The notes under the pieces are model-generated. The model was not told the DNA's origin and made no database searches. It worked only from the letters and a program-made list of their open reading frames with translations. Below are positions 11,614-44,425 of a stretch of DNA of 64,000 nt, one piece after another. The stretch is from IMG/VR virus record IMGVR_UViG_3300048672_000152, positions 1 through 64,000 of that record. The stretch is one strand, 5' to 3'. The stretch's first letter is position 1, and the number at the start of each line of letters is the position of its first letter. Origin of the DNA: a virus. The position numbers were made by a program, and so were the translations under genes.

Positions 11614-12921
11614 TTATTTTACCCTAATTACACAATTATCTCCACCAACAACGACATCGTAAGCTTTCTTCATATTTACCTCAGCAGTCTCAGCATAGTC
11701 TTCTTGAACAACAACAGAATCGTGAATTGGTATTAGAATCCTGTCATCTTCAACAGCACGTTCCAACAGATAATCCATCAAACTGCTCTCGATATTCATC
11801 AGAAATGTAGCTTTCTTACTAAAGAAATAATCCATTAGATAAGCATTACGATCCATAAGCATATCCAACATTTTACGTATTACGGGAAAATCATTCCACA
11901 TTCCCTTTTCTTTTGCGTCATCAATCTTGGCTTGCATTCCAGAAGACTTCAGTTCACCGAGCGTTGCATAGTAAGCTGTATCAAAACTATCAGCGTTGAG
12001 CAAGCACATCAACCCTATCTTAGCTAGGTCTCTTAATACTTTAGGGCAGTAACCCTCAATTTCCACAGCATATACATCAAACTCTGGGGATAACTTTTGA
12101 CCAACCAGATCAGCAGCTATTCTAGGCCATAGTTGACTATAATCAAGCTCCACTGTAGGTAAGCCATTAATGTAAATCTCTCTACGATTTTGCTTGTTCA
12201 ACAACTCAGACACGTTAGAACCTGTCATAAAAATCCTACCTCCTTCTCTCAGTGATGAATTGTTATATATTTTCTTCACAGTAAAATAGAACTTGTTATC
12301 TTGAACGCTAACACTAGATTTGTCAAGAGAAGCATTGAAAGCATTTAGTACATCAACTAGGTGCTTTTCTTTTGGAGTCAAGCGTATACCTATGGGCCTT
12401 CCTTTCTCATCCCTAACTTCCAAGACACTCTCTACAGGTTTAAATTTACCACTTACTTCTGCTACCCGAGTAACGATACGTTCATCTAAGTACAGTATAC
12501 TTGACTTAAATGACTCAGGTACTGCTTTGAATTTATCTTTACCATTCTCATCAACATGGGAGAACTTGAGAACATAGTCTTCTGCACCACCTTTCTCAAT
12601 GATGGAGTTAGTAAAATTCTCTAAATAAGATAACACAATCTTCATGTTGGTGTAGCTAATCTTTCTCCCTGTGTTATTGCCATTATACACAGCAGGATTA
12701 GAATATGAACCCTCACTGAGAGTTAAGGTGATATATGGTTTACCTTTACTCACCATAGAAGCAGTATTGAGAATGATACAATAACAACATCTCTTTATGT
12801 CTGTCATTCTTTTAAGAGTAGCTTTCACATCTGTATTCTTAGTTAGATGGTCTATAACTTCTTTGTATAAGCTATCACCTATCTTACTAAGTTGCTTATT
12901 TAAGATATAATCTAATAACAT
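11614..12921 (-). CDS. compact family-A/T7-like polymerase-fold protein (copy 1)
   Basis: 435 aa. GGRIF, ELDYSQLWPR (motif A), RDLAK (motif B), MNIES, PIHDSVVV (motif C); no exonuclease domain. Confidence 0.75.
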   Translation of the reverse strand: MLLDYILNKQLSKIGDSLYKEVIDHLTKNTDVKATLKRMTDIKRCCYCIILNTASMVSKGKPYITLTLSEGSYSNPAVYNGNNTGRKISYTNMKIVLSYLENFTNSIIEKGGAEDYVLKFSHVDENGKDKFKAVPESFKSSILYLDERIVTRVAEVSGKFKPVESVLEVRDEKGRPIGIRLTPKEKHLVDVLNAFNASLDKSSVSVQDNKFYFTVKKIYNNSSLREGGRIFMTGSNVSELLNKQNRREIYINGLPTVELDYSQLWPRIAADLVGQKLSPEFDVYAVEIEGYCPKVLRDLAKIGLMCLLNADSFDTAYYATLGELKSSGMQAKIDDAKEKGMWNDFPVIRKMLDMLMDRNAYLMDYFFSKKATFLMNIESSLMDYLLERAVEDDRILIPIHDSVVVQEDYAETAEVNMKKAYDVVVGGDNCVIRVK

Positions 12922-13056
12922 TTAATCTCTAATACTCCTATAATAACTACTACAGTAAAGCCCCCTGTCGCTTCGCTCCAAGGGGTTGGGTTCCCCAATA
13001 GCAGGAATAACAGCTTAAACCTTAGTGTAGCAAGGCTTAAACCTATCATTTGCTCC

Positions 13057-13263
13057 CTATTTATACCTCACCAATACCTCAACTTCTAGCCCTACAAAGT
13101 CAGCTAACTCAAACAATTTATCATAGCTTACAGAATCAGTTTTCAACCACTGATTGACAGCCTGTCGTGTACATTGTTGATGCTTGGCTACATCAACTTG
13201 AGTGATACCTAAATCTTCCATAGCACTAATAATAGCGAACTGAATTTTATTCTTGTGTGTCAT
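13057..13263 (-). CDS. Cro/XRE-type HTH regulator
   Basis: GITQVDVAKHQQCTRQAVNQW helix-turn-helix pattern. Confidence 0.8.
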   Translation of the reverse strand: MTHKNKIQFAIISAMEDLGITQVDVAKHQQCTRQAVNQWLKTDSVSYDKLFELADFVGLEVEVLVRYK

Positions 13264-13558
13264 AACACCTCCTTTATGCTAGTAGTTTACCAGATGTTTC
13301 TGTATTGTCAAGCAAATAACTTAACCTATTACATACCTGTGTTCTGCCTCTCCACGAATTAAAGCCTTACCATACTTCCAAGACATACCTTCGACATCAG
13401 CATCACGACTAACTGACATCCGAACACCATTGAAATTAAACTTAACAAAAGCTAAATCCATACGCTGTGCTAAGTCTTTAGCTTCTGCAATAGCTTCTTC
13501 AATAGATGTACCAGCCAACACTTCCACTTCAATAGAAAAATTACTCATTACGTTCTCC

Positions 13559-14053
13559 TTATTTAGATTTTCTGTTCACTACGGCTTTACAAAACTCAAG
13601 TAGAGCTTCATCTGTTTCATCATTTTTCATTAGGTTGTACCACCAAACAACAACTCTGACGTTATCTTTAGTGTAACCCTTGCTATTATCAACTCTGTCT
13701 AGTGACGGAGCTAACTTGTTTGTTTTGTATTTTTCAGATGAACATTCGTAGCTGAAGGCTATTCCTGTAGCTTCACAGACTCCAGCGGTTAACTTGTCGA
13801 TTATAAAGTCTAAATCTAATTCAAAACCTGCGTTCGCTTTATTATTTCGCCTAGCACCTTTTAATAGATCCATTGCCTTACCTCTAACACTATTGTAATA
13901 GGCTTTAGCTCTCACTGAATCTTTATTTCTAGTGCATTCCTTACAAGTACGAGCATGGATTGCCACACCTTTATTGTTTGTATAGCAAAAGATAAACTCA
14001 TTGAGTTGTTTGTCAGTTTTGCACACCCTGCAAGTCCTCACTTGGGAAACCAT
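13559..14053 (-). CDS. putative HNH-type endonuclease
   Basis: CxxC...CxxC N-terminus; PSLDRVDNSKGYTKDNVRVV...N..K. Confidence 0.75.
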   Translation of the reverse strand: MVSQVRTCRVCKTDKQLNEFIFCYTNNKGVAIHARTCKECTRNKDSVRAKAYYNSVRGKAMDLLKGARRNNKANAGFELDLDFIIDKLTAGVCEATGIAFSYECSSEKYKTNKLAPSLDRVDNSKGYTKDNVRVVVWWYNLMKNDETDEALLEFCKAVVNRKSK

Positions 14054-14069
14054 TTACTAACCCTCATTC

Positions 14070-14180
14070 GTTTCGATGTAGAACATCTTACACATACATA
14101 TATAAGAAGTCAACAAGAATTTTAATGAAAATAAGTATTGACACGAACATCAGAACGTGTAAAATAGCTCTCATTGAAAC
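14070..14180. promoter_or_regulatory. divergent sigma70 promoter pair at the strand switch
   Basis: Minus strand TTGACT/TAAGAT; plus strand TTGACA(14138)/TAAAAT(14160); both followed by AT(C/T)GAAAC. Confidence 0.7.
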
Positions 14181-14520
14181 AACGGAGAAACACTATGAAT
14201 ATCGAATGTGCATGTGGAAGTTGTAATACAGATGTAGTGATCAGTTAACATGAATATGTATATAAAGGTTATGTGCTACAGGTTGAGAAGAAGCATACTG
14301 AATGTTGGGATTGTGGTCTTGAGTTTACCACACATTTTCAAACGAATTACAACGACTCTCAAGTAAGTATTGCAAAGTTCACAATTGAACAGTACATTTT
14401 AAACAACCCAGACGAATGATAGAGTGCTTCATTACTGAAGCAGTACGTTAGGGTGTCTTTAGGCAGATAAGTGCCTTGTAGACAGTCTCACAGCGTTTAA
14501 ATAGGGTTCACATAGGGGGA

Positions 14521-14712
14521 TTGAGTATGGTTAAGGTTGTTGGTCAAGATATGAGTATGTATTTAGAGGTTACTTGCAGAAATTGTGCAGGTGTGTTACA
14601 GTACACACGTTCAGAAGTGCAGAGTGGGATGCAGACAGATTACGGTGGCGGTAAAGAGTTGTATAAATTTATTACTTGTCCACAATGTAGTGATAAAGTT
14701 AGAGTTAAATAA
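14521..14712 (+). CDS. small zinc-ribbon protein
   Basis: CRNC...CPQC. Confidence 0.6.
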   Translation: MSMVKVVGQDMSMYLEVTCRNCAGVLQYTRSEVQSGMQTDYGGGKELYKFITCPQCSDKVRVK

Positions 14713-15934
14713 GGAAAATCATGAACTACTTACACCAACTAAATGTACTAGAAACTAAAGATGATCGTGATGTCGTAGCCACTGCGAGTATTGGTACATA
14801 CTACGTACATAAAAAGAATTGTTTAGCTGCTTTTCCATTCGGTGTAGCTGGTCATTACCACACAGGTAAAGAAGCATTTGATACTATGAGAAAGTTCTTG
14901 CATTCACGTAAGGATGCTGCTATCCTACGTGTAACTTTGATTGAGGAATAAGGAGAATAAAATGCAAATTTTAGAATTTTTAGAATATTCACAACAAGCT
15001 TGGCAGAAAGTAAAAGAATCTGATCAACATACTCTACATACACTACGTTATGGTCAAGCTTTATATCTTGTACTACCTGATGAGTTCTTTGAACATATTT
15101 ATCAAACAGATAAAGACTTCTTCTACTGGGGTAATGAACGTGCTGAAGAAATCGACCAAATTTGCTATGCTATGTGTGCAGATTATGAAGATATGTGGTA
15201 TTTAGGGGTGATACTATGATAGTTACAATCCTTATTGCAATAACTTTCATTTGTGGTATCATAATTACCGCCAGCAACAACATCAATAAACGTGCTACAT
15301 TCTTGGCTATCCTTGGGGTAACATTAGGACTGTTGTTAGGAATGATTAATACACCAGCCACTTTGCTATATGAAGAAGGTCAAAAGGCTGTCAAAGAATG
15401 TCAACAGCATATTGTTCAAGGTGAAGAATGTGTTATGGTAGTGACAGCAGTTATAATTTAAGAGGTATCTATGTTAAAACAAGCGATTATGTTGTTAGTG
15501 TTTGGTCTGTCAGCAGTGCAGACTGTAGTTCCAGCAGAGACAGCTAACAGAGAACTTGTTAAAGTGGTGGATAAACCATTGAGAATGAAATTCCTAGCAG
15601 AATGTAAGGCTATGAAACAAAAGAATTGCCATTATAAAGCCTTTGAATTATCTGTAAGATTACAGGAAAAGCAATGAGCGAATTAACACAAAGAGATAGC
15701 ACATTAATCAATACATTCTACAATGCTTTGATTCAAGAAGCTGGTAAAAATGGTATTCCTGTTCGTAGTGCTGGCTTCAATGAAGAACGCGATAATGACT
15801 ACCTATTATGGTTAGTGGTGTATCGCTTTCAGATGGGGATGTCTATGTTTGAATTGTTTATCAACACAAAGATGTCTGAAGATAGCGGATTACGTTATGG
15901 TTGGAATCGTACAGGAATGTTTTAAGGAGATCAC

Positions 15935-16330
15935 ATGAAAAAGAATAAACTAATTGAATTGTTACAAGCTATTGATGGTAATCCAGAAATCTATTTGTGG
16001 AATGGCTTTGTTGAAGATTGGGTAGATATTAGCCCCGATTTCGTGGAAAATTATTTGGTTAAAGAATCTGTAGAACACAAACTCAATTGTTTGAAAATGG
16101 AGTGGTGTAGAAATAATAACACCTTTGAAATTCCTGATGACGTATTGGCTTCTCTAAGTGAATATGCTAATCAATTAGCAGCTAAAGAGAAATGGGATTT
16201 CCCTAATCGTTACGTAGAAGATAAAGATTTCAAGATGTGGTACGGTAAATCTAAGAAACGCATTATCTTGATTGATGCTAAACGTAAAGGTACTTCGTAT
16301 TCTGATCGACAAGGTACTATGAACTATTAA
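15935..16330 (+). CDS. hypothetical protein
   Basis: 131-aa ORF with AAGGAG RBS. Confidence 0.6.
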   Translation: MKKNKLIELLQAIDGNPEIYLWNGFVEDWVDISPDFVENYLVKESVEHKLNCLKMEWCRNNNTFEIPDDVLASLSEYANQLAAKEKWDFPNRYVEDKDFKMWYGKSKKRIILIDAKRKGTSYSDRQGTMNY

Positions 16331-16856
16331 AATATTCGTTGACATGGAATATGAATATCTGTAGAATTAGCCTTATTGAAACAGAGGAGAGAAATTATGA
16401 CTAAGAAAATTGGGGTATTGGTTAGTACAGGTTTTGGGGCAGGTTGGTCAACATGGAACAACCCAGAATGTGCTTTAGATCAAGAACTTGTAGCAGCAAT
16501 CGAAGCTAATTTACCTGCTGAACAAATCACAGCTATTGCAAAACGTAATTGGCCGAATGCTTATTTAGGCGGTCTATTGGATTGTGATGTGAAGTGGGTG
16601 GATGAAGGTACTGCATTTCGCATTGAAGAATACGATGGTGCTGAATCTATTCATTTTCCAGATAGCTACAATTGGCAGATTGCAAAATGAACCAGAAGAA
16701 CACAATTAAATATATTCATGAAGTAGTCGGAGAGTTGTATCTTGACAAGAACTCTGCTATCATTGAGCTTATGAAAGAAGATAAGAAGAAGGCTGATAGC
16801 ATCTTGCAGACTTTGTTCTATAATTGTTATGGTAGATATACGCAGGAGAAACTAAA

Positions 16857-17984
16857 TTGACTAAATATGTAACTAACTTTGCTCGTACATGCTTCGACCA
16901 TTGGAGTGCATCAAAAGCTGTATCTGAATATGTTCAGAACTGGTTAGACAGTGATGGTGAACGTGAATATTCTTTCACTGACACTGGCATTGTACTTACT
17001 AACAAGAACATCAAAGTCAGTAATAAACTACTGATGATGGGTAAGTCTGATAAACGTAATGACCCTAGTAAACGTGGCAGATTTGGCGTAGGTTCGCTTC
17101 AGTCAATGGTGGTGCTGATTGACCTTGGAGCTACTGTTGTGATCGAGAACAATGATGTGGTTTGGACTCCAGTGTGGGAATATTCAGACCAATATCAAGA
17201 TGACATCATGGTAATTATTGAGACAACTAAACGACGTCCAAACAATAACTTCTCTGTAATCATTGATGGATTGGATAGTGAAACATTAGATGAGATTAAG
17301 ATCCGTTGTCTAGCATTCCAAAATCGTGAAGTATTACATAGTACAAAGTATGGTGACTTGATTGAAACAGTAAATGGTGATACAGGGGAGATTTACGTAG
17401 GTGATTTGTACGTATGTCAGAATGCAAGCTTCAGTTATTGTTACAACTTTAAACCTGAGTTTGTTAAGCTTTGTCAAGATCGTAACCTAGTGTCACAATG
17501 GGATTTACAAGAGTTGACAAGTAAGCTTATCATTGCTACAAATGATGTGGAGTTGATTAAAGAATCAATTACTTTAGCTACCCTAGATACACGCAACTGT
17601 AATATGTATTGGGATAGTACACAACGTACTTCACCTGAAGTAGATAATGCTTTAGCTACAGAGTTTTTAAATGAACATGGTAATGCTTTTGTCACTAATG
17701 ATATTCACACATTCCAAGAGATGACAAAGCTTGGTAATAAGGTGGCGTTAGTACAAACAGAAACATTATATAAAGCCATCACTCGTAGTAGTGTGTATAA
17801 AGAAGCGATTGAAGGTGTAGAAGAAATTGTTAAAGAATCTTTTGCTGATTTAGCTAATAAAGTTCTTGACGAGTTAGAATATATGGTGCAAAATGGTGAA
17901 ACTCTAACTAAGACATATCATAAAGATTTGATTGTTAATTTAGAGTTGTTACGTGAACGTATTGATAATGAAGATTACAACTAA
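16857..17984 (+). CDS. GHKL/HATPase-fold ATPase
   Basis: N-box EYVQNWLDSD and G-boxes MGKSDK and GRFGVG. Confidence 0.7.
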   Translation: MTKYVTNFARTCFDHWSASKAVSEYVQNWLDSDGEREYSFTDTGIVLTNKNIKVSNKLLMMGKSDKRNDPSKRGRFGVGSLQSMVVLIDLGATVVIENNDVVWTPVWEYSDQYQDDIMVIIETTKRRPNNNFSVIIDGLDSETLDEIKIRCLAFQNREVLHSTKYGDLIETVNGDTGEIYVGDLYVCQNASFSYCYNFKPEFVKLCQDRNLVSQWDLQELTSKLIIATNDVELIKESITLATLDTRNCNMYWDSTQRTSPEVDNALATEFLNEHGNAFVTNDIHTFQEMTKLGNKVALVQTETLYKAITRSSVYKEAIEGVEEIVKESFADLANKVLDELEYMVQNGETLTKTYHKDLIVNLELLRERIDNEDYN

Positions 17985-18005
17985 AGTTGTGAATAAGGAG
18001 ATACA

Positions 18006-18446
18006 ATGGCAAAACTAAGTGAACGTGTTACAAACAATAGTATTAGTGATTACATGCTGACGGGCAGTCTAGCGGATACATCATTAAGAGTTGAGGTAAC
18101 ACCAAATGTACCAGTAAATAATGTAAATTGCACAGTTAAATTAAACAACACAGGAGAAACAAAAATGGGTATTCGTAAAGTATCATTAACACTGATTGAC
18201 AATGACAATAATCTAAAAGGTGCTGAGAAGATTGTATTTGAACAATCTGTAGTAACAGAGCATGACAATGATAAGACAATCCAACAAGTGCTTATCACAG
18301 GTGATGTATCTACAGCATTAGATAAACACAATAAGAAACGTGAAGCTACAGTAGACAAAGCTGTATTACGTAGCACAGGAACTCAAGTGTTCTTAGAACC
18401 TGTAGAAATCTTTGAGCTACAATGGCAAGTGGTGCAAATTGGTTAA
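18006..18446 (+). CDS. hypothetical protein
   Basis: 146-aa ORF with AAGGAG RBS. Confidence 0.6.
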   Translation: MAKLSERVTNNSISDYMLTGSLADTSLRVEVTPNVPVNNVNCTVKLNNTGETKMGIRKVSLTLIDNDNNLKGAEKIVFEQSVVTEHDNDKTIQQVLITGDVSTALDKHNKKREATVDKAVLRSTGTQVFLEPVEIFELQWQVVQIG

Positions 18447-18529
18447 TACCAATAGCATTTAAACGCTGTGGGAGAGGCGTAGAGTGATTATCTATACTCT
18501 ACCTATGTGAATGTATTGCTTAATGTATT

Positions 18530-18553
18530 AGCCCCGCTTTGCGGGGCTTTTTT
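18530..18553 (+). terminator. intrinsic terminator
   Basis: agccccgc-ttt-gcggggct followed by a T-tract. Confidence 0.8.
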
Positions 18554-18576
18554 GTATAACGTTAAAGAGGGACTAA

Positions 18577-19734
18577 ATGAAGAAATGTATTAGATGTGGT
18601 GAGATAAAACCTTTTGAGGATTACTTTAAATGTAGTCGCATTAAAGATGGGTATATGGGTTATTGTAGAGTCTGCCACAATAAGAACAACAAGGGTGTTA
18701 AACAGGTATTGTATAGCGAAGTTGTTGCCGGAAACGCTTACAAGAATACTCTAGGTGAGGAATTTACGGTTACTTCAATTAGTGGTAAAACTGCTTATGT
18801 TTATTTCAATGAGTTATTACATGGGTCTACCGGTATTGACAAGGTAAGGATAGGAAAAGTATTCACAAACAGTAGGACAGGGGATATACGTAACAAAGTA
18901 AGTAAAGGTCAGGTCATAGGAAACTTAACAATCTTAGAAGACATGCAGGGTAAAAACTCTAAGGTCAATACTCTGTGTAAATGCGGGAATCAATCTTTAG
19001 TAAGAATGGATTATTTAATAAGCGGAGGTATCAGTTGTGGTTGTATTCTCAAGGAAGATAGTCTCACTGTCTCTAACTTTAAGGAAAGCATGTCTAAGTG
19101 GAATCCTACAACACACCGGATAGATGTGAAGAAGTTACCTATATTCAAACTAAACCCTGAAGGGGAAGGTTGTCATATTGATGGATGGACTTATGTTGAT
19201 GACTATATTTATAACAGCCTGAGCAAATGTATGTTGACTAGAAACATCTACGTATTCGTAGGATTGAGTAAAATTAACTCTGATGCGCTTGGTATTAAGT
19301 ATACCTATGGTCACAAAAGAATACCATTACACTCTTGGGTGAAAGCTATGCCTACCGGAGTTAAAAACTTAGTCACTGACCATAAAAACGGCTGTAAGTT
19401 AGACAACAGGATGTGTAATTTAAGGATTGCAGATTCATCACAAAACTCAGCTAACTCTAAAGCTAACAGTGGTACAGGATACAAAGGAGTGACTCAACTT
19501 GCGGACGGTAAGAAAGGTACGCCTATTAAAAATGTTTTGGCGCAAGGTTGGATACCTCTACAAAATAAGCACAAATTCCTTGGCAAGTATTACACAGTAG
19601 AGGAAGCAGCTAAAGCTATAGACATTTGGAATATCCAAAACTATGGAGAGTTTGTTAGGTTGAATTTTAAAAGAAGTATTTATGAGGAGATGGGATTACT
19701 CCCTAAGACAGAAAAGAAATACAAACTCCCATAA
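18577..19734 (+). CDS. HNH homing endonuclease with AP2-like C-terminus
   Basis: DHKNGCKLDNRMCNLR; GYKGV...FLGKYYTVEEAAKA. Confidence 0.85.
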   Translation: MKKCIRCGEIKPFEDYFKCSRIKDGYMGYCRVCHNKNNKGVKQVLYSEVVAGNAYKNTLGEEFTVTSISGKTAYVYFNELLHGSTGIDKVRIGKVFTNSRTGDIRNKVSKGQVIGNLTILEDMQGKNSKVNTLCKCGNQSLVRMDYLISGGISCGCILKEDSLTVSNFKESMSKWNPTTHRIDVKKLPIFKLNPEGEGCHIDGWTYVDDYIYNSLSKCMLTRNIYVFVGLSKINSDALGIKYTYGHKRIPLHSWVKAMPTGVKNLVTDHKNGCKLDNRMCNLRIADSSQNSANSKANSGTGYKGVTQLADGKKGTPIKNVLAQGWIPLQNKHKFLGKYYTVEEAAKAIDIWNIQNYGEFVRLNFKRSIYEEMGLLPKTEKKYKLP

Positions 19735-19987
19735 AGTTAGGGGCAGGGTGAATAAAGTATCCCTGCAACACATAGATAAATATGAAAATCTGCCCCTTGT
19801 CAACTTGCGATATACCCACAACATACGTAAATTTTTTGTAGATAAATCAAAAACTTAGAATCCAGTTCAATCGACCCTTCAATGGCAACATACGCACTCT
19901 CCAGACTCCGCAGCTTGCGCTGCCCCCTCGCTTCGCTCGTCAACCAGCTACACTCCGAAATTTTTACCGGATACAAAATTCATAGAG

Positions 19988-20035
19988 AAAATAAAATTCA
20001 TATATGAGCAATTGCTCATATATGAATTTTATTTT
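19988..20035. repeat. 48-bp perfect palindrome
   Basis: AAAATAAAATTCATATATGAGCAA|TTGCTCATATATGAATTTTATTTT, checked base by base. Confidence 0.95.
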
Positions 20036-20197
20036 GCTTTACCTAGTTGACAGGCTGTCTGTTATCTGGTAATTGCGCATGATATTATATAAGGTAAAAT
20101 AACGTATAAAAATAATTGATAAATTTTAATAAATACGCTTGCAATTAATTTTAAATGGTATACGATTGTATCAAGTTTAGCGGATAAGGTTTAACTA

Positions 20198-23985: not shown

Positions 23986-24014
23986 TACTTACCGGTAAAA
24001 TTAAACAAATAACT

Positions 24015-24039: not shown

Positions 24040-24417
24040 ATTGTCTAAAATTCAACCCTAGCAAACCCCATGCCAACATGACAAAACAGCCTAAAATTAG
24101 TGGTATATTAGAAAAATCGAAAATAGCTAAAATCAACGCTATTGCACGTATTCAGTCGAACCCTTATCAAGGTATCAAAACAGCCCTAAATTGATTGTAG
24201 GCGATTCTAGGCGCATTATAATTGATTGCTATCCTTTCAATACTTGAATTTATTGCATAAAACATGAATAAAACATACAGGATAATAAGGTTATGCAATG
24301 CAAACTTGCATATTATGCAAAATAAGGCTGTTTTACAGTGAAAAGCTATAGAAAAGCCTAGCTATTAAACATCATTAAAAATAGCAGGATATGCAATATC
24401 CTTGCCAAGTATTAATA

Positions 24418-24555
24418 CTGTATAGTTATACAGTAGTATTGAATAATCCAATAGCCTAAGCTTTTTTGCTTACCTTGCTATTAAAGTGTATATCTATCCA
24501 GTAGTGTATAAACATACAGTAGTACATAAATATACAGCACTGGATTAGTGTACAG
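24418..24555. promoter_or_regulatory. array of LexA (SOS)-box-like sites
   Basis: CTGTATAGTTATACAG (24418) and CTGGATTAGTGTACAG (24540) fit CTG-N10-CAG; near-matches at 24486, 24504 and 24522 give an exact 18-bp period. Confidence 0.75.
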
Positions 24556-25286
24556 TAGTTTTACAAATTGAATTTGTTTAAACACTAACATTAATCAATA
24601 ATCATACCAACTATTCCAACCCTTCTATACCGCATGGTACAAATCTATCCTATCCGATAAGCTTGCGTTATACTTGATTACTCAAGTAATTCTGTAATGA
24701 ATATTCATGCAATTACATTAGAATTCAATCATTTAACATAATCAGAATTAGTGGTTATCTTGTTTTATATTGCATATTACGCAGATATTTTAAACTTTCT
24801 AGAGTGATATATTCGGGGGGATATTCCTGTGTTAAACCATGATACGAACATGAACTACTGGTAGAATAACAGGATATTCGATATTTCTAATCTCAATAAC
24901 AAACTAGGCTGCATACCTTGGTATGACTCATTTTTACTAATATTTTAGATAGAAAATACCCAGATACTCCGTATCAGGAATAATATAGGATGGTACAAGG
25001 AATAGTGTCTTGATATTTGCACCAACACAGAGCATAACATCCCAATGCCTTGCATTGATATTTCATATAATAATTACGGATATTTAGCAACAAATACAAT
25101 AGGATAGGTGATATTTTATAGGAGTAATACAGGAGTAGTGCATCAATAAGGGAGTGTATAGGTATTTGGATAAATAAAAAGACAGTAACATAACATTACT
25201 GTCTCTATTTGAAGTGGCTCATAATGGCTCAATAGTGAGCCACAAGTATTAATAGTTATAGGGGAAATGACCAAAAGTGTGACATT

Positions 25287-25303: not shown

Positions 25304-25309
25304 CATGAC

Positions 25310-26107: not shown

Positions 26108-26120
26108 TTATTTACTTCCA

Positions 26121-35071: not shown

Positions 35072-36185
35072 AGCATTCTCCTAATCCCAAAACCCTAATA
35101 AATGTTTATTCAGCATAGTTGTGAGCAAACTCAAATTTGCTTTTCTGCGTTTGACCAGATACTTGTGACTCTCCCACATAACGCGAATATCTTTGTTGTT
35201 TCTAGTGATAAACACTTTATTTGTCTGATGATTATCCTCACGTACTCGCTTACACAACTCAGCACAAATCTTCATCTTCTTAGCCACTTTGTCAGCATTA
35301 AGGTGCATACCTTTCTTCAATGTAACTTTAGCGGCATTATCTAACCAATCTTCCATAGCCATCAACAAGAAACTGTAGTCATACCATTTGTAAGCCTTTA
35401 AGAATTGACGTTTGTGTTTGTTTTTCATACTACACCTCCCGAACCACATACATATTAGACCCATACTCGGCATCAACAGCCTCTTGTGCTAATACTCGTT
35501 TGCTTGTTTTATAGAAAATGAATGTCCCATCCCAAATACGAATGCAATATTTGCTTGGGTAGACAAAAGTATCTTGTGCATATTCTTCATAACTAACAAC
35601 TACTACTTCAATAGCTTTCTTCTTAGACATTATTTTCTCCTTCATGTTTCGATGAGATTCATTATACACGAATCAAATATCAATGCAACTATAATTTTCA
35701 TTATTACAAAGAAAAAAGCCCGCTAAGAAGCGGGCTTATGTTTATCTAATTCTTCACGATATAAAGCAATAGCTTTGAGTAGACTATCCACTTGTTTCTC
35801 AAGTACACTGTTGTACTCTTGTAACTCATTGTTCCGGCGCTCTAGCTGGCGGATTGTTTCTTTGTCGTCTGGAACAGACATATATTCTCTCATTTCTGCA
35901 TAGTGCGTCATTTTGTTTCTCCTTTGTTTGCAAATTTCTCATTAAGGATATCAGCTAACCAAACACCTGTTACAGCACCAACTGCCGCTCCAATGGAAGT
36001 GATTAGAATAGTCCATGTTGCCCCTTGCGTCAACACTGTTCCATAAACAGTCAGTTCTAGTAAGCAGATAAAATAACTCACAATAGGAATAATTCTCATA
36101 TTCTTATTTGCGATACTTCTACCTTGCAACGTTTTTAGCCCCACTGCTGTGAACATACCTAGCGTTGTTAATATTGTTTGTGCTA

Positions 36186-36566
36186 TCATAAAGATCCCCC
36201 GTATTCCGCAATAATCTCATCCATTACACGCAACGTACCATTGTAATCCCCGATCCACATACGTAACAATGCTTCACGATATAATTGGTTATCTGTGAAT
36301 GTATTAATTAACGCTGTGCCACTATCTACAGACACTAAATCAAGATTGTCTATATACTGAAAAGCATAAGTTTTTAAATCCATTTCTAATTGCACACAAT
36401 GTTTAGCTTTGTTTAAGTTAACAAGCTTGTCACCTTTATCTCTGGTTAGGTATTTAGCAAGTTTACAGAAACACGGTGTACCGTATAGTTTATATACAAG
36501 CTCAATAGGCTGCATCTTCATTGCTGTGTAGTGTGTGCCATCGCATTGGAATCCTAAACCATTCAT
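36186..36566 (-). CDS. DUF3310-like protein
   Basis: GTHY..MKMQPIE...KYLTRDK pattern. Confidence 0.55.
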   Translation of the reverse strand: MNGLGFQCDGTHYTAMKMQPIELVYKLYGTPCFCKLAKYLTRDKGDKLVNLNKAKHCVQLEMDLKTYAFQYIDNLDLVSVDSGTALINTFTDNQLYREALLRMWIGDYNGTLRVMDEIIAEYGGSL

Positions 36567-36621
36567 ATTATTCTCCTCTTAAAATTAAAAAGCCCCAATC
36601 TTTCGACTGAGGCTAAGTATA

Positions 36622-37353
36622 TTACTCTGGTACGCTATTGTCAAGCTCAGTGATAATTAATTTTCCATTATCATCAACATCAACAGAAATCTCACCTAAT
36701 ACATATTGAGCTAATTGTGATTTAGTTAATTTTAACAGTTGTTCTCTTGTCAAAGTTTCTTCGTAGAGGTCGTCTAAGTTGAAAGCTTTGGTTTGAGCTT
36801 CTTTTTGTTCTTGAATTTGAGCTTTGATAATGTTCTCACGTTTTTCAAGTCGCTCACAGATTTCATCATACTCTAAATATGAATCCTTACCTTCAAGAAT
36901 ATCTTCAATTTCTTCTGGTGAATAGAAACCAAAGTAAACATCTTGGTACAAGGCACGTAATTGTTTGTCGCTAGATTGAATCGACCTAATTTTATCGCTT
37001 AACTTACCACCATCGTACCCATGAGATGTGTGACTCATAAGTGTGGAGTGTGGCATCACTTCAACTGAGTGACAAGACAGTAGCAGAATAGATCCACCAC
37101 TCATTGCTACACCATTCAAAATACCATGTACATGACCGTTACAAGAACGAATCATATTACTAAGCATTGTAGTAGTGTGCAGGAATCCTCCAAAACAGTT
37201 TATTGTTAGTTCAAGAGAATCATCTTCCGACATAGAAGTCAATACTTGAACTAATTCTCTATACTTGCTAGGTTCTTCAATATCCCCGTCAATGAAATAT
37301 GCAAAGTTTTGTGGAGAAGGTTTTACGTAAATTGTATCTAATTCGTTAAGCAT
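36622..37353 (-). CDS. ClpP-like protease
   Basis: INCFGG, GVAMSGGS (catalytic Ser), LMSH. Confidence 0.82.
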   Translation of the reverse strand: MLNELDTIYVKPSPQNFAYFIDGDIEEPSKYRELVQVLTSMSEDDSLELTINCFGGFLHTTTMLSNMIRSCNGHVHGILNGVAMSGGSILLLSCHSVEVMPHSTLMSHTSHGYDGGKLSDKIRSIQSSDKQLRALYQDVYFGFYSPEEIEDILEGKDSYLEYDEICERLEKRENIIKAQIQEQKEAQTKAFNLDDLYEETLTREQLLKLTKSQLAQYVLGEISVDVDDNGKLIITELDNSVPE

Positions 37354-37889
37354 TGTTCTCTCCTTAAAATATTGTATTGAAATTCAAGCTGTTTCCTCAC
37401 GGTAGCAGCTTCGATTTCTGTGTTATATCTGCCGAAATACGTAGAAACTCCTCCTACTGGAAACCAAACTTCCCATTTATTATCTTTTGGTCTGATGCCG
37501 TACCAAGCATATGTCGGAGATTTACCTGTATTAAATGTGTTAGCTGAAACCGTACTTAGTCTCAAATTACATATACGATTATCTAAACTATCTCCATTTA
37601 TGTGGTCAATAATAGAAGATGTGTCACCATAAACGTAAGCCCAAGCAACTCTATGTGCTTTGTATCTTACCTTGTTTACATATAAACTCTTATATTGGTA
37701 GCCAGAGGCGTTTTCCTCTAAACTACCCGCTAACATCCCTACATGCTTCTTATTAAAACTTTTCCAAACTGTATCAGTCTTGAAATGTTCTCTAGGACGA
37801 GTCTTCCAGAGGAATTCTCCTGTGCTTGGGTTATATTCAAGTACAGACTTAATGTAATCCACAGGTATCGTCTTGGGTAATAGCAACAT
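37338..37889 (-). CDS. HNH homing endonuclease
   Basis: YNPSTGEFLW, KAHRVAW, IDHINGDSLDNRICNLR, AP2-like C-terminus. Confidence 0.88.
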   Translation of the reverse strand: MLLLPKTIPVDYIKSVLEYNPSTGEFLWKTRPREHFKTDTVWKSFNKKHVGMLAGSLEENASGYQYKSLYVNKVRYKAHRVAWAYVYGDTSSIIDHINGDSLDNRICNLRLSTVSANTFNTGKSPTYAWYGIRPKDNKWEVWFPVGGVSTYFGRYNTEIEAATVRKQLEFQYNILRREQCLTN

Positions 37890-37890
37890 A

Positions 37891-38646
37891 CTACATCAAC
37901 CCCTTACGTCTCAGAGCAAGAATCACTTTCTTCACTGGTTCAGAACGAACAATATCACTTGGACGATTGAAATCTACGAAGCCCCAAGGTAGGTCAGGAT
38001 TCTCACCATACAACTCAATAGCTAATTGAAGACCGTTACTCTCTTTCAAATCAGTTTGTAGAATATCACCAGCTAAAACTAAAGTAGAGTTATTGCCGCT
38101 TCGAGTGATAATCTTGATAAACTCTTGACGACTGATATCTTCAGCTTCATCACAAATGATAAAACAGTTCTTCAGTGAGCGTCCTTTTATCACTTCGAGT
38201 GGTATGGGTTCAATATCTCCACGTTCGATAGCTAAATCTACTACAGAACGTCCTAGCTTCTCGTATAGCGTATCTAAAATAGGCATTAACCAGTTCTTAG
38301 ACTTCTCTACAAGAGACCCCCCGAAGAAACCTAATGACTTAGAGTTAGATACTGCTGGACGCACTAGATAAATCTTATTGATTTCACCTAAATACCACTT
38401 TTCTGCTGCAACACAAGTAGGGATGTAACTTTTAGAGCTTCCTGCATACCCAGTAGCGATCACAACAGGAAGTTCATTGCACATACGAATGTATTCGGCT
38501 TGCAAATCATTCATAGGTTTTACGGTGACAAACTTTTCTTTTCGGTCTTCTAAATGTTTTTCAGAAATCTCACGAGGTTTCCCCGCAGTTTCTTTAGCTT
38601 TACGTGTTCTCTGTACACGTTGTTTCGCATTGCTATTGTGTTCCAA
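37891..38646 (-). CDS. phoH: PhoH-family ATPase (TTG start at 38646 chosen from the RBS)
   Basis: GYAGSSKS, RPAV, LGFFGG, KGRSL, DEAED, GDILQTDL, IVRS; AGGAGG upstream of the TTG. Confidence 0.9.
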   Translation of the reverse strand: MEHNSNAKQRVQRTRKAKETAGKPREISEKHLEDRKEKFVTVKPMNDLQAEYIRMCNELPVVIATGYAGSSKSYIPTCVAAEKWYLGEINKIYLVRPAVSNSKSLGFFGGSLVEKSKNWLMPILDTLYEKLGRSVVDLAIERGDIEPIPLEVIKGRSLKNCFIICDEAEDISRQEFIKIITRSGNNSTLVLAGDILQTDLKESNGLQLAIELYGENPDLPWGFVDFNRPSDIVRSEPVKKVILALRRKGLM

Positions 38647-38659
38647 TTTATTATCCTCC

Positions 38660-39055
38660 TTAATCACAACTGCTTGATGAACTACTACTACTACTTGAAT
38701 AATCTGAACTACTATAATTACTTGACGAGCAAGAATCACTACTAGACATGATAATTGCAGTAGCTACATAAGGTGTAACATAGTCAGTGTTATCAACTTT
38801 AATAGCATTGCTCTCAGATTGAACAGTAGATTTATACTTACTCTCTGCTGGTTTGTTATACTTCTCAAACTTTGACTTAGCTGGAGTATTTACTTTCGGC
38901 ATAGGAGTTTCTGTCTTAGTAGCAGGTAACTTCTGATAATCATTAATATGCTGTGGCAATTCTTCGACCTTCAGCATAGCAACATTAGGTAACTCTTGCT
39001 CAACTTTACTAGATGAAAACAATTTACTAAATTTAGATACTAACCAATTCCACAT
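38660..39055 (-). CDS. hypothetical protein with Ser-rich tail
   Basis: C-terminus SSSDSCSSSNYSSSDYSSSSSSSSSSCD. Confidence 0.6.
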   Translation of the reverse strand: MWNWLVSKFSKLFSSSKVEQELPNVAMLKVEELPQHINDYQKLPATKTETPMPKVNTPAKSKFEKYNKPAESKYKSTVQSESNAIKVDNTDYVTPYVATAIIMSSSDSCSSSNYSSSDYSSSSSSSSSSCD

Positions 39056-39457
39056 AACAATCCCCCCTTATTTATCGAAAATAAATATCATCTCTCAGAC
39101 TAACGTAACCATCTCTAATTTCTTTAACAGTAGGTATACTGCTTTTCCTATCAGCTAAGAAAGCTAAGGGGTACATTGCTACTAAAACAATAGTAAACAA
39201 CAACACAGCAAGAGTAAACTTAATATGCAACCACCACATTATAAATACTCCCCTAATAATTCTAGTTCATATTCAGACAACATAACACTGTAAGGCTGAC
39301 TTTTAGCTTTCAATGTTGTCTGGTAGTTACGTAAGATATGCTCATAATCTAGCATATCAGGAACTTCTTCTTGTGATGCTTTATTATTCTCAAAGTTAGT
39401 GAGGAATGTATCACAAGCTAATAAGAATACATCTGTTGGGTATGTGAAATACATTAG

Positions 39458-40212
39458 TTAACCTCCTAATAGTTCAATTAGTTTGTCTTTAATCTTTTCT
39501 TCAGCATCGTCCACTTTTAACTTAGTACCGACTGATACAGCAATCGCAGCAATGCGGTCTTCGTAGTTATCCAAGAAATTACGAATTTCTTTTAGTTGTT
39601 TACCTGAGAATTCTTCTAGTAACGCCTCACGATAAGCACCTTTGATGTTAAATGTTTCAACAACGAAGTCTTTTAGTTCCGCCAACACTGATGGTTCTAA
39701 ATCAATTTGCTTCTTAACCTCGTCTTCCATTTGTTGCATAAAAGCGCCGACAACTTTCTGGACAATACTCTCTAAATCTGAAGTCATTTATTCTCTCCTT
39801 ACATTAATATTTTAATTTCACGTTCAACTGGTTCAATATCGACAACACTGTCAATATCATCTAAACCATATTTAAACTCATCTAACACAACAGACAGACA
39901 TTCATATAGCTTTATGTAGTTAGGGCTATTGATGACCCGCAGAAGTTCTTTAACTTCGTCTTCTGACATATTCATTAAGATAGTTTCTTCCAATCGTGCA
40001 ACAATTGGGTATTTAGCAGTATCCATCTTGAATTTATCGTACAATTCACGACTATATTCATCCACCAACTCGCGCTGGGTGTCATTAGTACATAACTGCT
40101 TTGTACTATCTGTATAGTCTGCCAAGTATTCAGCAATACTTGCAGCACCGTCTAACTGAAATAATTCAATCAGTTGTTCTTGAATTTCACTCATCTTCAT
40201 CCTCCTCATCAT
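39458..40212 (-). CDS. two tandem acidic helical proteins (39458..39787 and 39799..40212), DUF2059-like
   Basis: Both carry an (F/M)S..(Q/E)(L/V)KE(I/L)..(F/V) helix; the family call is tentative. Confidence 0.35.
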
Positions 40213-40748
40213 AAATGTCTTTCATACCTTCAGCACCATTCTCAAAAGCATTGTTTGCTGCTTCATCAAATGCTCTGTGTATCAATGTTGAGCCATCTTC
40301 TTCCTCTGACCCTAAACTACATAAGAACTCTTTTAGGAATTTAGATTTATTGTTAATCTGAAATGGACAGCATGGTGCATTTTCTAAAGCCCATATCAGG
40401 GTATCCACACCAATGGTGATTTGGAGTACTTCATTTTTTATTTTAATGTCTAGTGGTTTATTTGCGTTTTCCATAATTCTCTCCTTAATTAAACATAGAA
40501 ATCATTCTATCACTGAAACTGTATTTGTCAATAGCTTAACAGCACCAAAATTGTCTAAATAGTTAGTAACATTAGTAATTAATAAATCTCTCAATGTTTC
40601 AGGGTCAGCACACTCGCCAGATTTGTATACAGGTATTTCATGTAAATCCAAGTACACAAACCCTCTGTATTTATTTGAGTTTGGAATAGGTTCTACAACA
40701 ATCTCGTATTTGTAAATCTTATCATAACTGTAAATGTGGTCGTGCATA

Positions 40749-41273
40749 TTATTCTCCTGTGTAAGAACCGTAACGAACTTTGATAGTACCTAAATCTTTA
40801 AATGATTCATAGAACTCATGTACATTCTTACCGAAATATGTAACTACACTCCCCTTAGTAACCCCTTTCACTTTATTACCGTTCTGGTCATAGTAGTTGG
40901 TGCGCCCATGTAAATAACATTGTGGTCGATGTAACAACGGTTTGAACCAAGTTTCACTTGTAGCAGCAAACGTAATCATTACGATTTCACAGTCATTACT
41001 AACGTGTTCTTCTAAAGCTTTCCAAGCAATACGTTTATTATTCTCACGAGAAAATGGATGATTGCACCACACTTTACCGAACCAATGCTGCTCGAAACCA
41101 TCATCTTCTTTTGTGAAAATACATTTGGCTTTCACAGTTTTGTTAGCTTGTTCACAACTAAAAGGATCTAAATCAATACGTCCCATAGTTTTACGGGCAG
41201 CTTCAATGATTTCTTTTGGTGAGTACCATTCAGTATTTCCGCTATCTTGGTTAATCAGTTGATGTTCTTCCAT
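40749..41273 (-). CDS. phage DNA N6-adenine methyltransferase
   Basis: EWYSP, IDLDPFS, DDGFEQHW, VWCNHPFS (NPPY-like motif). Confidence 0.85.
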   Translation of the reverse strand: MEEHQLINQDSGNTEWYSPKEIIEAARKTMGRIDLDPFSCEQANKTVKAKCIFTKEDDGFEQHWFGKVWCNHPFSRENNKRIAWKALEEHVSNDCEIVMITFAATSETWFKPLLHRPQCYLHGRTNYYDQNGNKVKGVTKGSVVTYFGKNVHEFYESFKDLGTIKVRYGSYTGE

Positions 41274-43120
41274 TATAATTTCCCCTCTCGTTTTAAATCT
41301 TGGTATCTCATTTCAACTTCCCTGTAGTACACTACCTTGTCGTTACTGTATTCTCCAATATTCCAACCATGTTTATCATGTAAATAGAAATATCTCTCAT
41401 AATACCATGTATCACTCCAAACACCATTGAAATTAGTATCTTTAATAAATTGGTCAATCAATTCCATTGAATGTGAATAAGTAGGTGTGTCTAAGTAGTA
41501 AATTACACATTCTTCTTTCTTATTAATTAAATCTTTACGGTGTTCACGTAAACTTGCAAGCTGCAACTCTAACTCTTTAATTTGAAAATCAACAACTTCA
41601 ATGGCTTGTGTATATTTATTGAAACCTTCCTCAAGGATAATTTTCATATCCATTACTCCATCTCCTTCAACACATCTGTTAATAACTTAATCTGGCGTTT
41701 AACTCTAGCTACAGGACACATGAAATCAGTTTGATACCAACTACCTTCAATTTTGTTATCTTCTTGTTCCGACCACCAATTAGCAATCTCAAACAACTCA
41801 TTCACTTCTCCTATTGTCAGCTTAAATGTATTCCCAAAGTCAGTAATAATATGGAATACTTCAATAGTTTCTGTAAACTCATCGTTTAGTACAGATTTCC
41901 TAAGTGTATATGTCTTGGTTTCTTTGCTGATAACAAACCCATTACCACAACGCTGACCATCTTTAGTAGCTAAAGCCATCCCAACGATAGGTGTAAATGC
42001 TCGATTAATTGGTTTCATTTGTGTTCACCTCGATTAATTCAACATCATAGTTATCACCCAAGTAATTTCTACAGTAAGATTCTAACATATCCTTAGCTAC
42101 TAAAGGGTATTGTGTTGTCCCTACTGTGTAAGCCCATGTCTCATCCCATACTTCATATAGATTAGTTTGTGGGTCAAACGTAATTTCACCATTTTTAGTT
42201 ACTTTAATTAAACTCATATATTTCTCCTTATTTAAACCTCAATTTTAAGCTATGTACAAGCGTGTACAAGCCACTCTATTCTTACCCAATACGATTTATC
42301 ATCTTACGTATAATAACACCCTTCTCAACGCTTGTACAGCGTTTAAATGCTATATGCGATGTATTATTTCTTTATAGGGTATTTAGAAATTATATTTTCA
42401 CTTATTCAGCTATTCTGAAACGCTAGTTTCTAATTCTTTCTTGATACCATCCAACACTTCCATCACCCACCAATCATCAGCAAAGGTTTTCTTGGAATTC
42501 ATTACATCGTATATGTTCTTCTGAAAGAAGTCAAGTGTTCTGTACTCTGGTAATGCTACAAATGTGTATATGCTGTTATATGGAATATGCGCGTACATTC
42601 TGGTGAGACTTAGTAGCTCTAGGATTAGTTGGTTCATGTTAATATCTCCTCAATTTCAATTTGCACACTGTACAGGAAGACAATGGGATTGTCAATAGGT
42701 ATTTTGTTGTTGACATTTGGAATTTGGTGGTGTAGAGTGTGGACTTGTTAATTGATGGAGGTGTTTATCTCACATATCTGTGATTTCACCGTATTCGAGT
42801 AGACACTTACCTATTAGGTGTTAAAATATAAGCATAAGGAGAACATTATGACTAATGAAGAAATTATTGAGAGTATTGCAAACTGGTACGAACTTCCTGT
42901 TGAGCAAGTGGCTTTGTTATGGAGTGCATTTCAGTGGGTGTCTGATAGTGATTTACAGCAAGTGGTTAGAGCTACTGTTACTCAATTTATTCAAGATAAG
43001 TTGGTGTAGTTCGACACACTAAATGAAACCTCTGTATCCTTAGTCTCTCTAAGGCTGTAGAGGTTTTTATTATATGTTTTATCTCTTATTGGATGTTGGT
43101 ATGGAGGATAGGTATATTGG

Positions 43121-44425
43121 TTGTATTGGATAGATTATAAGATAAGTAATGAGATGAAAGAAGTTAGTAGTAAGTATTATACCGAGTACGTAGATTATTT
43201 ATCTAAGTTTAATGAAGTTAAGTTAACAATTAATAAACTTACTAAGATAAGACAAGCTGTAGATTGTCTGTTCTATAACATTCAATACAGCTTAAAAGGT
43301 GATACGATCATAGTCACTAGAGATAGGAATGATTTTAGTAGACCACTAATCTATAATGGCAGGGTAGTTAATCGTAAGGTAAGCTATGAGTATACTATGT
43401 CATTATTCTCTTGGTTACATGCTCAAGGTTATGCTACTAATGAGATTGGTTTAGTGGATAATTGGGTGATGAAGGGTGGTGAATGGACACCGTTAACCAT
43501 TAAACAAAGTAAACTGATATTATCTGACCAACTTATGAGGGATGTCAATACTGTACTTATAGACAAAAAGAATGTACCTCCAGTAGAGAATGTTATTCGT
43601 ATCCGTGATGAGAGTAAGAATTATGTCACTAAGCGTTTAGGTGAATATCAGCAACACCTGTGTAAGTTACTTAAAGAATACAACCATTTGTCTAAGAGTT
43701 TTATTTTAGAATCATGCGGTAAAGAATTTGACATTCAGGTAGCAAAGGTGTACAATCAATCTTCCTTCCAGAAGGGTGGAAGGACTTATGTTATTGGGGG
43801 AGGAAGTGAAGTGTTAGAGAGTGAAATCAGAAGTCGATTAACTGTTGATGGTGAAAAGACTGTTGAATGTGATTATAAGAGTTTACATGCTCGTCTTGTT
43901 GCTACTGTAGTTGGTACACATATCCCACTAGACCATGACCCTTATCAACTGACTTTGGATGGGTATGACAACAAAGTGCTGCGTAAGATATGTAAGTTGC
44001 TTGTCCTGTGTATGTTTAATGCTAGTAGTAAGCAGAGTGCTATTTCAGCAGTTAACAAAGAAATCAACGAAACATCGTATGTCGATGAGAATGGGAATGA
44101 TATTCCAATCAGAGATTATTGGTTTAAAGAAGGTTTAGCTCCAAAGTATTTAGAGTTGAAATACATTGCGGATTTATTGTTAGAACACAACCCTTATATG
44201 AAAGGCCATGCTTTTACTGGATGTGGTATGGATCTACAGAATTTAGATTCACGTATGATGGATATTGTGGTAGATTATTTCACTAATAATGGGGAGTTCT
44301 GTTTACCTGTGCATGATTCTATTGTTGTTCGTGAAACTCTAAAAGACCAAGCAATCACTGTAATGTATGAAGCATATCTACAAGTTATGGGTAATAACGA
44401 TAATTGTATTGTGGATGTTAAATAA
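43121..44425 (+). CDS. compact family-A/T7-like polymerase-fold protein (copy 2)
   Basis: 434 aa. GGRTY, ECDYKSLHAR, RKICK, QNLDS, PVHDSIVV; paralog of 11614..12921 (both share YNG....RK.SY, K.YN.SS, G.DNC). Confidence 0.75.
   Translation: MYWIDYKISNEMKEVSSKYYTEYVDYLSKFNEVKLTINKLTKIRQAVDCLFYNIQYSLKGDTIIVTRDRNDFSRPLIYNGRVVNRKVSYEYTMSLFSWLHAQGYATNEIGLVDNWVMKGGEWTPLTIKQSKLILSDQLMRDVNTVLIDKKNVPPVENVIRIRDESKNYVTKRLGEYQQHLCKLLKEYNHLSKSFILESCGKEFDIQVAKVYNQSSFQKGGRTYVIGGGSEVLESEIRSRLTVDGEKTVECDYKSLHARLVATVVGTHIPLDHDPYQLTLDGYDNKVLRKICKLLVLCMFNASSKQSAISAVNKEINETSYVDENGNDIPIRDYWFKEGLAPKYLELKYIADLLLEHNPYMKGHAFTGCGMDLQNLDSRMMDIVVDYFTNNGEFCLPVHDSIVVRETLKDQAITVMYEAYLQVMGNNDNCIVDVK

Follow-up and report, generated by a model that had tools for sequence, protein, structure and literature searches.

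Two genes for minimal family-A polymerases in a marine phage genome

The DNA described here, called the window below, is the first 64 kb (positions 1 to 64,000) of the IMG/VR virus record IMGVR_UViG_3300048672_000152, a complete marine phage genome of 93,452 bp. It carries two genes, named A and B (Table 1), whose products we assign below to the TV-Pol family of predicted primase-polymerases, and a search with the family profile found these two copies only in the 93,452-bp genome. An earlier inspection of the letters alone, referred to as the sequence-only reading, had described the two proteins as diverged paralogs of near-equal length. This is borne out, as A and B (435 and 434 residues) align end to end with 30% identity (E 1e-59). 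The motifs listed in that reading, GGR[IF/TY], D-Y-x-x-L, RxxxK and HDS, are all present and are invariant or nearly so in the relatives of both proteins. B is read from a TTG codon, and this long start is supported by the N-terminal motif YWxDYK, which is kept in homologs.

A is 72-73% identical to gp041 of the Rheinheimera Barba phages. Both proteins match PHROG 4756, a family of 'unknown function' (E 2e-63 for A and 4e-84 for B), and the A1 profile matches copy A at E 4e-141. No Pfam or NCBIfam model matched A or B, including the DNA_pol_A model PF00476 with Pfam searched at E values up to 1, and the family profile matched no PDB sequence. The PDB entry 2pd0, a hypothetical protein of Cryptosporidium, was matched by B at E 0.0016 and by neither A nor the family profile; we treated it as a chance match. 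Alignment of the family with the phage's own Pol A using hhalign gave a probability of 3%, with motif A alone aligned.

A and B are members of the TV-Pol family

The TV-Pol family was defined by Iyer, Abhiman and Aravind (2008, Biol Direct 3:39; PMC2579912), who predicted its members to be primase-polymerases and proposed them as a minimal, near-ancestral form of Pol I and of the T7-type RNA polymerases (RNAPs). Their paper describes TV-Pols in small mobile elements and also in stand-alone forms, and lists as synapomorphies the thumb, the hairpin arginine, two palm aspartates, and fingers with an aspartate and an RxxxK motif (PMC2579912). All four were found in A and B. In addition, the A1 profile aligned with a protein of Reinekea blandensis MED297 at an hhalign probability of 99.8 (E 1e-28) over 339 columns (columns 49-431), an alignment that takes in much of the N-terminal domain. 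On the basis of this profile match and of the four synapomorphies, A and B are, judged by sequence, members of the TV-Pol family, in the subset with an N-terminal TV-PolN domain.

A scan of bacterial genomes yielded 89 relatives, including proteins of R. blandensis MED297, Paracoccus denitrificans and alpha proteobacterium HTCC2255. Reinekea, P. denitrificans and HTCC2255 are among the species aligned in the TV-Pol paper (PMC2579912), and it is by species and gene context that our bacterial relatives are tied to the TV-Pols of that paper. The Reinekea TV-Pol gene is followed by a gamma-delta resolvase gene and an integrase gene, and the P. denitrificans homolog adjoins an integrase gene. The family profile did not match Microcystis phage Ma-LMM01, one of the phage examples given in PMC2579912, a result that carries no weight either way. 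Beside A and B, no gene for a D5-like helicase, a resolvase, an integrase or a transposase was found, the neighbours being small open reading frames (ORFs) and an XRE-type helix-turn-helix (HTH) gene; since the paper also has stand-alone TV-Pols, the absence of helicase or recombinase neighbours does not exclude membership.

A and B thus resemble the TV-Pol family as a nuclease-free minimal family-A core in a protein of 400-600 amino acids, found in viruses and mobile elements. Unlike the described TV-Pols, they are encoded by a large lytic phage with a Pol A and a primase-helicase of its own, they are two paralogs in one genome, and the phage proteins form a clade apart from the clade of the bacterial elements. 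The kind of enzyme is therefore not a new one, having been known by sequence analysis since 2008.

Fold, catalytic residues and sugar pocket

Copy B was modelled with AlphaFold2 after 26 database homologs had been aligned with A and B, and the model obtained (mean pLDDT, the predicted local distance difference test, of 93.6) has a family-A polymerase core. In an exhaustive structural comparison the model matched the apicoplast DNA polymerase (Z 12.1), Aquifex Pol I (Z 11.5), human Pol nu (Z 11.3), the Klenow fragment (Z 11.0) and T7 DNA polymerase (Z 10.0). The RNAPs followed, with Z 9.4 for T7, 9.3 for the mitochondrial enzyme, 7.8 for the N4 virion enzyme and 6.6 for N4 RNAP II (6dt7_B). Foldseek agreed, with a probability of 1.0 to Pol I entries. 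Only polymerase domains align, indicating that there is no exonuclease domain. Structure prediction and Foldseek against T7 RNAP and Klenow, the check proposed together with the sequence-only reading, thus found a right-hand family-A fold, and the absence of an exonuclease, claimed from the letters, holds in the AlphaFold model. Residues 1-150 form a separate N-terminal domain, modelled alone at pLDDT 89; it matches mostly winged-helix proteins with a best Z of 5.8, below the noise level stated for the tool, and is possibly a winged-helix domain.

Residue conservation was counted over 142 non-identical relatives, both phage and bacterial. The family signature consists of GGRxY, an invariant Arg, ExD[YF]xx[LM]H, DxY, RxxxKxxx[LMN]xxxN[ASC], LQxxDS and P[VI]HDS[FVI], the last one including the HDS that had been likened to that of T7 RNAP. 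The metal-binding aspartates of the palm, D251 (142/142) and D399 (141/142), are kept in both A and B. The GGR lies at 219-221, within a strand at 220-225, and its hairpin Arg is found in 137 of the relatives. In the fingers, D273 is conserved in 125, R288 in 139 and K292 in 141. The two-Asp active site is intact, and fold and family membership are established.

The sugar pocket was compared with that of Pol I through spacing from invariant residues (the motif A Asp) and fold-level alignment, so that the equivalences which follow are not residue superpositions. At the position of Klenow E710, 135 of the 142 relatives have His, and Trp is confined to a small clade that holds A; the Trp or His noticed at the steric-gate Glu in the sequence-only reading is accordingly Trp in A and H256 in B. 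The position of Klenow F762 is Leu, Met or Asn in the family, and that of Klenow Y766 and T7 RNAP Y639, 12 residues past the motif B Arg, is Asn in 138 relatives. As judged by these alignments, an invariant His/Asn pair replaces Glu710/Tyr766 of Pol I, and the pocket is therefore not built like that of an enzyme restricted to deoxynucleoside triphosphates (dNTPs). The use of ribonucleotides is not proven by a bulky gate residue (His or Trp) alone.

Distribution and copy number of the family

When 1.84 billion representatives were searched by profile, at least 9999 proteins matched at E values up to 0.001 and 4013 at E values up to 1e-30; most are 410-520 amino acids long and align over their full length. 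The family is present in 290 GenBank phage records and is annotated 'hypothetical' in all the records listed; the hosts are Vibrio (including the host of V. cholerae phage ICP1), Rheinheimera (Barba phages), Aeromonas, Pseudoalteromonas and Shewanella. One Barba ortholog is named 'DNA polymerase' in UniProt, and clusters of the ESM Atlas have been labelled automatically, for instance as 'putative DNA polymerase family A'. The tree separates a phage-dominated clade of 58 rows, with A, B and the ICP1 and Barba proteins, from a bacterial-element clade of 84 rows. BLAST clustering of neighbouring genes revealed no conserved partner of TV-Pol in phages.

Two copies also occur in three other phage contigs of 78-93 kb, where they come from different deep subclades. 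The closest complete relatives have a single copy. The Barba phages have one each, which in Barba19A is of the A type. In G002, a syntenic genome of 93.4 kb with the same four-block layout as here, an A type heads the replication block and nothing stands at the position of B. In G001 (94.7 kb) the only copy is a B type, with which the structural block begins at the single divergence point of the genome. An A type thus stands at the start of the replication block both here and in G002 and Barba, and a B type at the start of the structural block both here and in G001. As an obligate pair, the two-enzyme system put forward in the sequence-only reading is not supported by this comparison, since these relatives have one copy each, though each type keeps its position. 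We regard B as an accessory addition rather than half of such a pair.

Genome layout and position of the two genes

The genome is made of four co-directional gene blocks, with divergence points at ~14.05-14.5 kb and 42.64-42.82 kb and convergence points at ~24.2-25.1 kb and 78.4-78.5 kb. A comes fourth among the genes of the leftward block, which starts at ~14.05 kb and also codes for Pol A, a gp4-like primase-helicase, polynucleotide kinase and RNA ligase; B comes second in the rightward block, which starts at ~42.8 kb and carries tRNA-Met, terminase, portal and virion genes. One copy near the head of each major operon, as read from the letters, is therefore an accurate description. GC skew mirrors gene orientation and no more.

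Table 1. Positions of the two polymerase genes, of the elements around them and of the ICP1 homologs (window coordinates unless an accession is given)
Feature	Position	Strand	Description
TV-Pol paralog A	11614..12921	-	435 amino acids; N-terminal TV-PolN-like domain and minimal family-A core
TV-Pol paralog B	43121..44425	+	434 amino acids; TTG start; architecture as in A
XRE-type HTH gene	13057..13263	-	68 amino acids; directly upstream of A; sigma-70-like promoter GCTTGACA...TAAACT
63-amino-acid ORF	42818..43009	+	Upstream of B; first in rightward block, behind TGTTGACA promoter
Stem-loop ahead of A	13012..13043	-	After HTH gene; 13 pairs; -20.8 kcal/mol, z -1.9; terminator-like
Stem-loop ahead of B	43026..43066	+	After 63-amino-acid ORF; 18-bp arms and T-run; -20.3 kcal/mol, z -4.98
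CTATTGGGGAACCCAA palindrome (TTGGG-N5-CCCAA)	12986..13001	-	~65 nucleotides upstream of A; between HTH gene and A
CTCTTATTGG half-element	43083..43092	+	~30 nucleotides upstream of B; aligns with A-type element
Divergent intergenic region 1	14054..14520		Leftward and rightward sigma-70 promoters; strand/GC-skew switch 1.1 kb from A
Divergent intergenic region 2	42638..42817		Back-to-back TTGACA promoters; strand/GC-skew switch 0.3 kb from B
T7-type replisome	930..5281	-	Pol A 930..3401 (823 amino acids, PF00476) and gp4-like primase-helicase 3410..5281; PHROG 17, 239
ICP1 ORF100	HQ641347 53113-54780 (L169)		555 amino acids; N-terminal extension; record notes similarity to Geobacter protein
ICP1 ORF100.1	MH310935 57946-59250 (L168/L001)		434 amino acids; after 'HigA' HTH gene

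Of 68 informative viral loci, 53 have the TV-Pol gene in first or second place behind a strand switch, compared with 519 of 1093 neighbouring genes so placed (Fisher p ~1e-6), an enrichment that rests on crude ORF calls and whose effect size is uncertain.

The separate full Pol A announced by the sequence-only reading is indeed present and forms, with the primase-helicase, a T7-type replisome (Table 1). The primase-helicase has an N-terminal Cys4 zinc ribbon, a Toprim_2 and a DnaB_C domain. A Dda-like helicase and a ligase are encoded by the phage as well. The scan of its large ORFs revealed no RNAP and no recognisable initiator. A separate gene for a 'DNA polymerase exonuclease subunit' (PHROG 403) lies outside the window, at genome positions 85444-86388 (-), ~9 kb from Pol A across the record ends, and motif A of the replicative Pol A reads DMKSAQ, with Gln at the Klenow Glu710 position in a low-confidence local alignment. 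The polynucleotide kinase and RNA ligase genes are adjacent, at 8374-10157 (-) (PHROG 505, 562), and resemble the tRNA-repair pair of T4-like phages. Between the convergent blocks, the non-coding 24195-25142, a gene-free region of 1 kb, holds an array of at least four CTGT-N8-ACAG repeats (24417-24562) that are SOS/LexA-box-like and partly spaced by 18 bp. The phage is rich in homing endonucleases and introns; a group I intron at 60812-61055 (+), in the tail/tape-measure region, is the sole Rfam match in the window (RF00028, 57 bits, E 8e-12).

Sequences upstream of A and B and transcription signals

The gene order is alike at A and B: a sigma-70 promoter, a small ORF, a stem-loop and the TV-Pol gene, each stem-loop beginning 6-16 nucleotides past the stop codon of the small ORF. 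The small ORF ahead of A matched Pfam HTH_37 (E 5e-6, 26.7 bits for a cut-off of 27) and HTH_3 (E 6e-4, 20.3 bits for a cut-off of 23), and the 63-amino-acid ORF ahead of B had no Pfam match. Small HTH genes also precede the homologs of ICP1 (where the gene is named 'HigA') and of loci L087, L100, L103 and L133, though not those of all loci. No OB-fold (oligonucleotide/oligosaccharide-binding) partner was recognised beside A or B at the sequence level, where the small ORFs downstream have no Pfam match.

The element AAATGA-N10/11-CCTT-N8/9-AAGG, which the sequence-only reading had placed before both genes, does have exactly two sites, 13020-13051(-) and 43021-43054(+), but these belong to a hairpin that follows a gene and are not a demonstrated promoter or origin. 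An expectation of zero for this pattern is not a fair test, the pattern having been written from these two sites. As a promoter or an origin it was rejected: it is absent ahead of most orthologs and corresponds to the top of the post-gene stem-loops. From their sequences, both hairpins are read as terminators or attenuators, and nothing besides them was found in a survey of inverted repeats next to A and B.

Alignment of A of the window with those of Barba19A and L098 showed that an AGCAAA box, the hairpin and TTATTGGG-N5-CCCAA are common to A orthologs, and the TTGGG-N5-CCCAA palindrome is kept in three diverged phages (the window, L002 and L098). Judging from its sequence and place, the palindrome is likely an operator candidate for the HTH protein. 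The CTATTGGGG/TATTGGG of A is the only copy outside a credible gene, being scored as coding because a spurious 45-amino-acid ORF overlaps it, and the TTATTGG upstream of B is the sole intergenic copy in the genome. These words do not recur between genes elsewhere in the genome; the TTATTGG element is confined to the two TV-Pol genes.

TTGACA was found in 20 of 59 upstream regions where 4 are expected, in all four blocks and directly downstream of each TV-Pol gene, often as CTATTGACA with good -10 boxes. This extended -35 element recurs genome-wide, for example at 10916-11000, 42640-42700 and 46500-46650; the 8-mer CTATTGACA is present in 5 upstream regions (0.4 expected), and sigma-70 -35 boxes extend into the structural block. 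We found no phage-specific repeated promoter and no conserved repeat of at least 14 nucleotides, and a survey of intergenic k-mers returned sigma-70 and terminator words only.

A parallel in phage ICP1

The replication proteins of ICP1 include a gp4-type helicase-primase and a Pol I. At one of its loci two alleles are known, ORF100 and ORF100.1 (Table 1), both of the TV-Pol family, which by sequence looks like module swapping. Early theta replication of ICP1 was mapped to a read peak 'near the 60 kb position' in 1-kb bins (PMC7145576). By analogy, ICP1 may be a parallel case, with a TV-Pol homolog no more than a few kb away from where the theta origin was mapped.

Primers for replication or transcription of genes

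In phage T7, the RNAP primes the primary origin for the gp4/gp5 replisome. The phage studied here has a replisome of the T7 type without the phage RNAP that primes the T7 origin, and this, together with the strand-switch position of the TV-Pol genes and the co-location in ICP1, favours a role of A and B in replication. The same role is favoured by the prediction of the family as primase-polymerases (PMC2579912) and by the fact that CcPol-MP of SCCmec, the only relative of the TV-Pol concept to have been tested by experiment, is a primase (Bebel et al. 2020; PMC7581432). The PolA-SSB primases are likewise exonuclease-less family-A primases of mobile elements (bioRxiv 10.1101/2022.12.02.518924). 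CcPol-MP is similar in being an exonuclease-less family-A polymerase of a mobile element, but it retains E710 and F762, has a preference for dNTPs and depends on a small OB-fold partner whose gene lies directly downstream (PMC7581432), whereas A and B have His/Trp and Leu/Met at these positions and an N-terminal domain of their own. We consider that A and B more likely make the primers that start phage DNA replication than transcribe genes, and give this reading a probability of about 0.5. Under it, the host sigma-70 RNAP would transcribe each TV-Pol gene early, reaching it by read-through of the hairpin behind the small upstream gene. The protein would then bind phage DNA and make a primer de novo, of RNA or mixed, which the T7-type replisome (Pol A and the gp4-like primase-helicase) would extend. 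TV-Pol would in this way start replication in a phage without an RNAP or a recognisable initiator of its own.

Several observations weigh against a priming role. The gp4-type primase, with its zinc ribbon and Toprim domain, is already complete, so that the need for a second one is not obvious. A search beside A and B, both divergent regions included, revealed neither iterons nor other repeats typical of origins. Strand switches also mark early promoters, so that position does not separate an initiator from an early gene, and the strand-switch enrichment is itself of uncertain size. The co-location in ICP1 is good to a few kb only, the reference coordinates of the engineered phage being uncertain. 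The winged-helix likeness of the modelled N-terminal domain appears weak, and the clade of A and B is one known from sequence analysis only. Finally, the patchy presence of the genes (B absent in G002, two ICP1 alleles at one locus) fits accessory or selfish genes equally well as initiator modules that can be swapped.

This last point leads to the possibility, somewhat unlikely in our view, that A and B are cargo with no role in the firing of phage origins, either the replicase of a small cassette (HTH gene and TV-Pol) passing from one phage genome to another or a repair, translesion or counter-defence polymerase. Among close relatives some have A, some B and some both, one allele has been exchanged for another at the ICP1 locus, and the twin copies of other phages belong to different deep subclades; the bacterial members of the family reside in elements that bear an integrase or a resolvase, and the abundance of homing endonucleases and introns in this phage would suit such a history. 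However, neither recombinase genes nor repeat boundaries flank A or B, each type keeps its place at the head of its block in the relatives named above, and at least 290 sequenced lytic phages have kept a member of the family.

That A and B could instead be miniature single-subunit DNA-dependent RNAPs transcribing the phage genes, one per operon class, is improbable. The HDS[FVI] of motif C recalls the HDSF of T7 RNAP, and GGRxY its GRVY, so that motif C and the T/DxxGR motif of T7-like RNAPs are both present; the residues by which Pol I excludes ribonucleotides, E710, F762 and Y766, are replaced by His/Trp, Leu/Met/Asn and Asn; the T7, mitochondrial and N4 RNAPs do match in structure (Z 9.4, 9.3 and 7.8), and the TV-Pol genes would be expressed early, from promoters at which their blocks begin. 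The likeness to T7 and mitochondrial RNAPs is nevertheless that of a superfamily fold with the HDS(F) and GR-x-Y motifs, and T7-like RNAPs differ in being twice the size, with a specificity loop, a large N-terminal domain, Tyr639 and promoters repeated genome-wide. A protein of 434 amino acids has neither that loop nor a large promoter-binding N-terminal domain, and the motif B Tyr (T7 Y639) is absent, Asn standing there by motif spacing. N4 RNAP II (gp15/gp16) resembles A and B as a small family-A-type RNAP without a promoter-recognition domain, but has two subunits, a weak structural match and no detected sequence similarity. DNA polymerases match better than RNAPs (Z 12.1-11.0 versus 9.4). 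All blocks, the structural one among them, have sigma-70-type promoters, some directly downstream of each TV-Pol gene, and a repeated phage-specific promoter is absent. Syntenic relatives manage on one copy, and full-length homologs lie beside resolvase or integrase genes in bacteria, which is the setting of the small mobile elements of Iyer et al. (2008), where there would be little use for a transcriptase. The idea of one RNAP per transcription class, put forward in the sequence-only reading, is not supported, in view of the sigma-70 promoters of all blocks, the lack of cognate promoters and the better match to DNA polymerases. Of its wider claim that A and B are RNAPs or primer makers, half the size of T7 RNAP, the size and the catalytic residues stand and the primer role fits the prediction of PMC2579912, while the transcription reading is weak. 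It is highly improbable that both are catalytically dead polymerase-fold proteins acting as DNA-binding regulators. The unusual Trp in the nucleotide pocket of A and the separate N-terminal domain of both would suit this, but the metal-binding Asp, RxxxK, hairpin Arg and HDS are kept in A, B and 137-142 of the 142 relatives.

The priming reading also has a more specific and speculative form, which we regard as unlikely. The TV-Pols of lytic phages would be the long-missing enzymes that fire the origin for a T7-type replisome where no phage RNAP exists, as sequence-directed single-subunit polymerases of ~430 amino acids laying down an RNA primer at the strand switch, with two origins (~14 and ~42.7 kb) and two specificity variants in the present phage. 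If this were true, they would be the smallest natural DNA-dependent RNAPs known, and every gene would be co-oriented with its replication fork.

Significance for phage replication

A large and coherent clade of TV-Pols lies unannotated in hundreds of cultured lytic phages, including the tractable ICP1. The conserved strand-switch placement, the invariant His/Asn sugar pocket and the presence of two putative specificity variants in one genome make it worth reporting. The A/B pocket offers a natural test case for the choice between ribonucleoside triphosphates and dNTPs by a His/Asn pair, and an old prediction becomes a direct experiment on how T7-type replisomes start without a phage RNAP.

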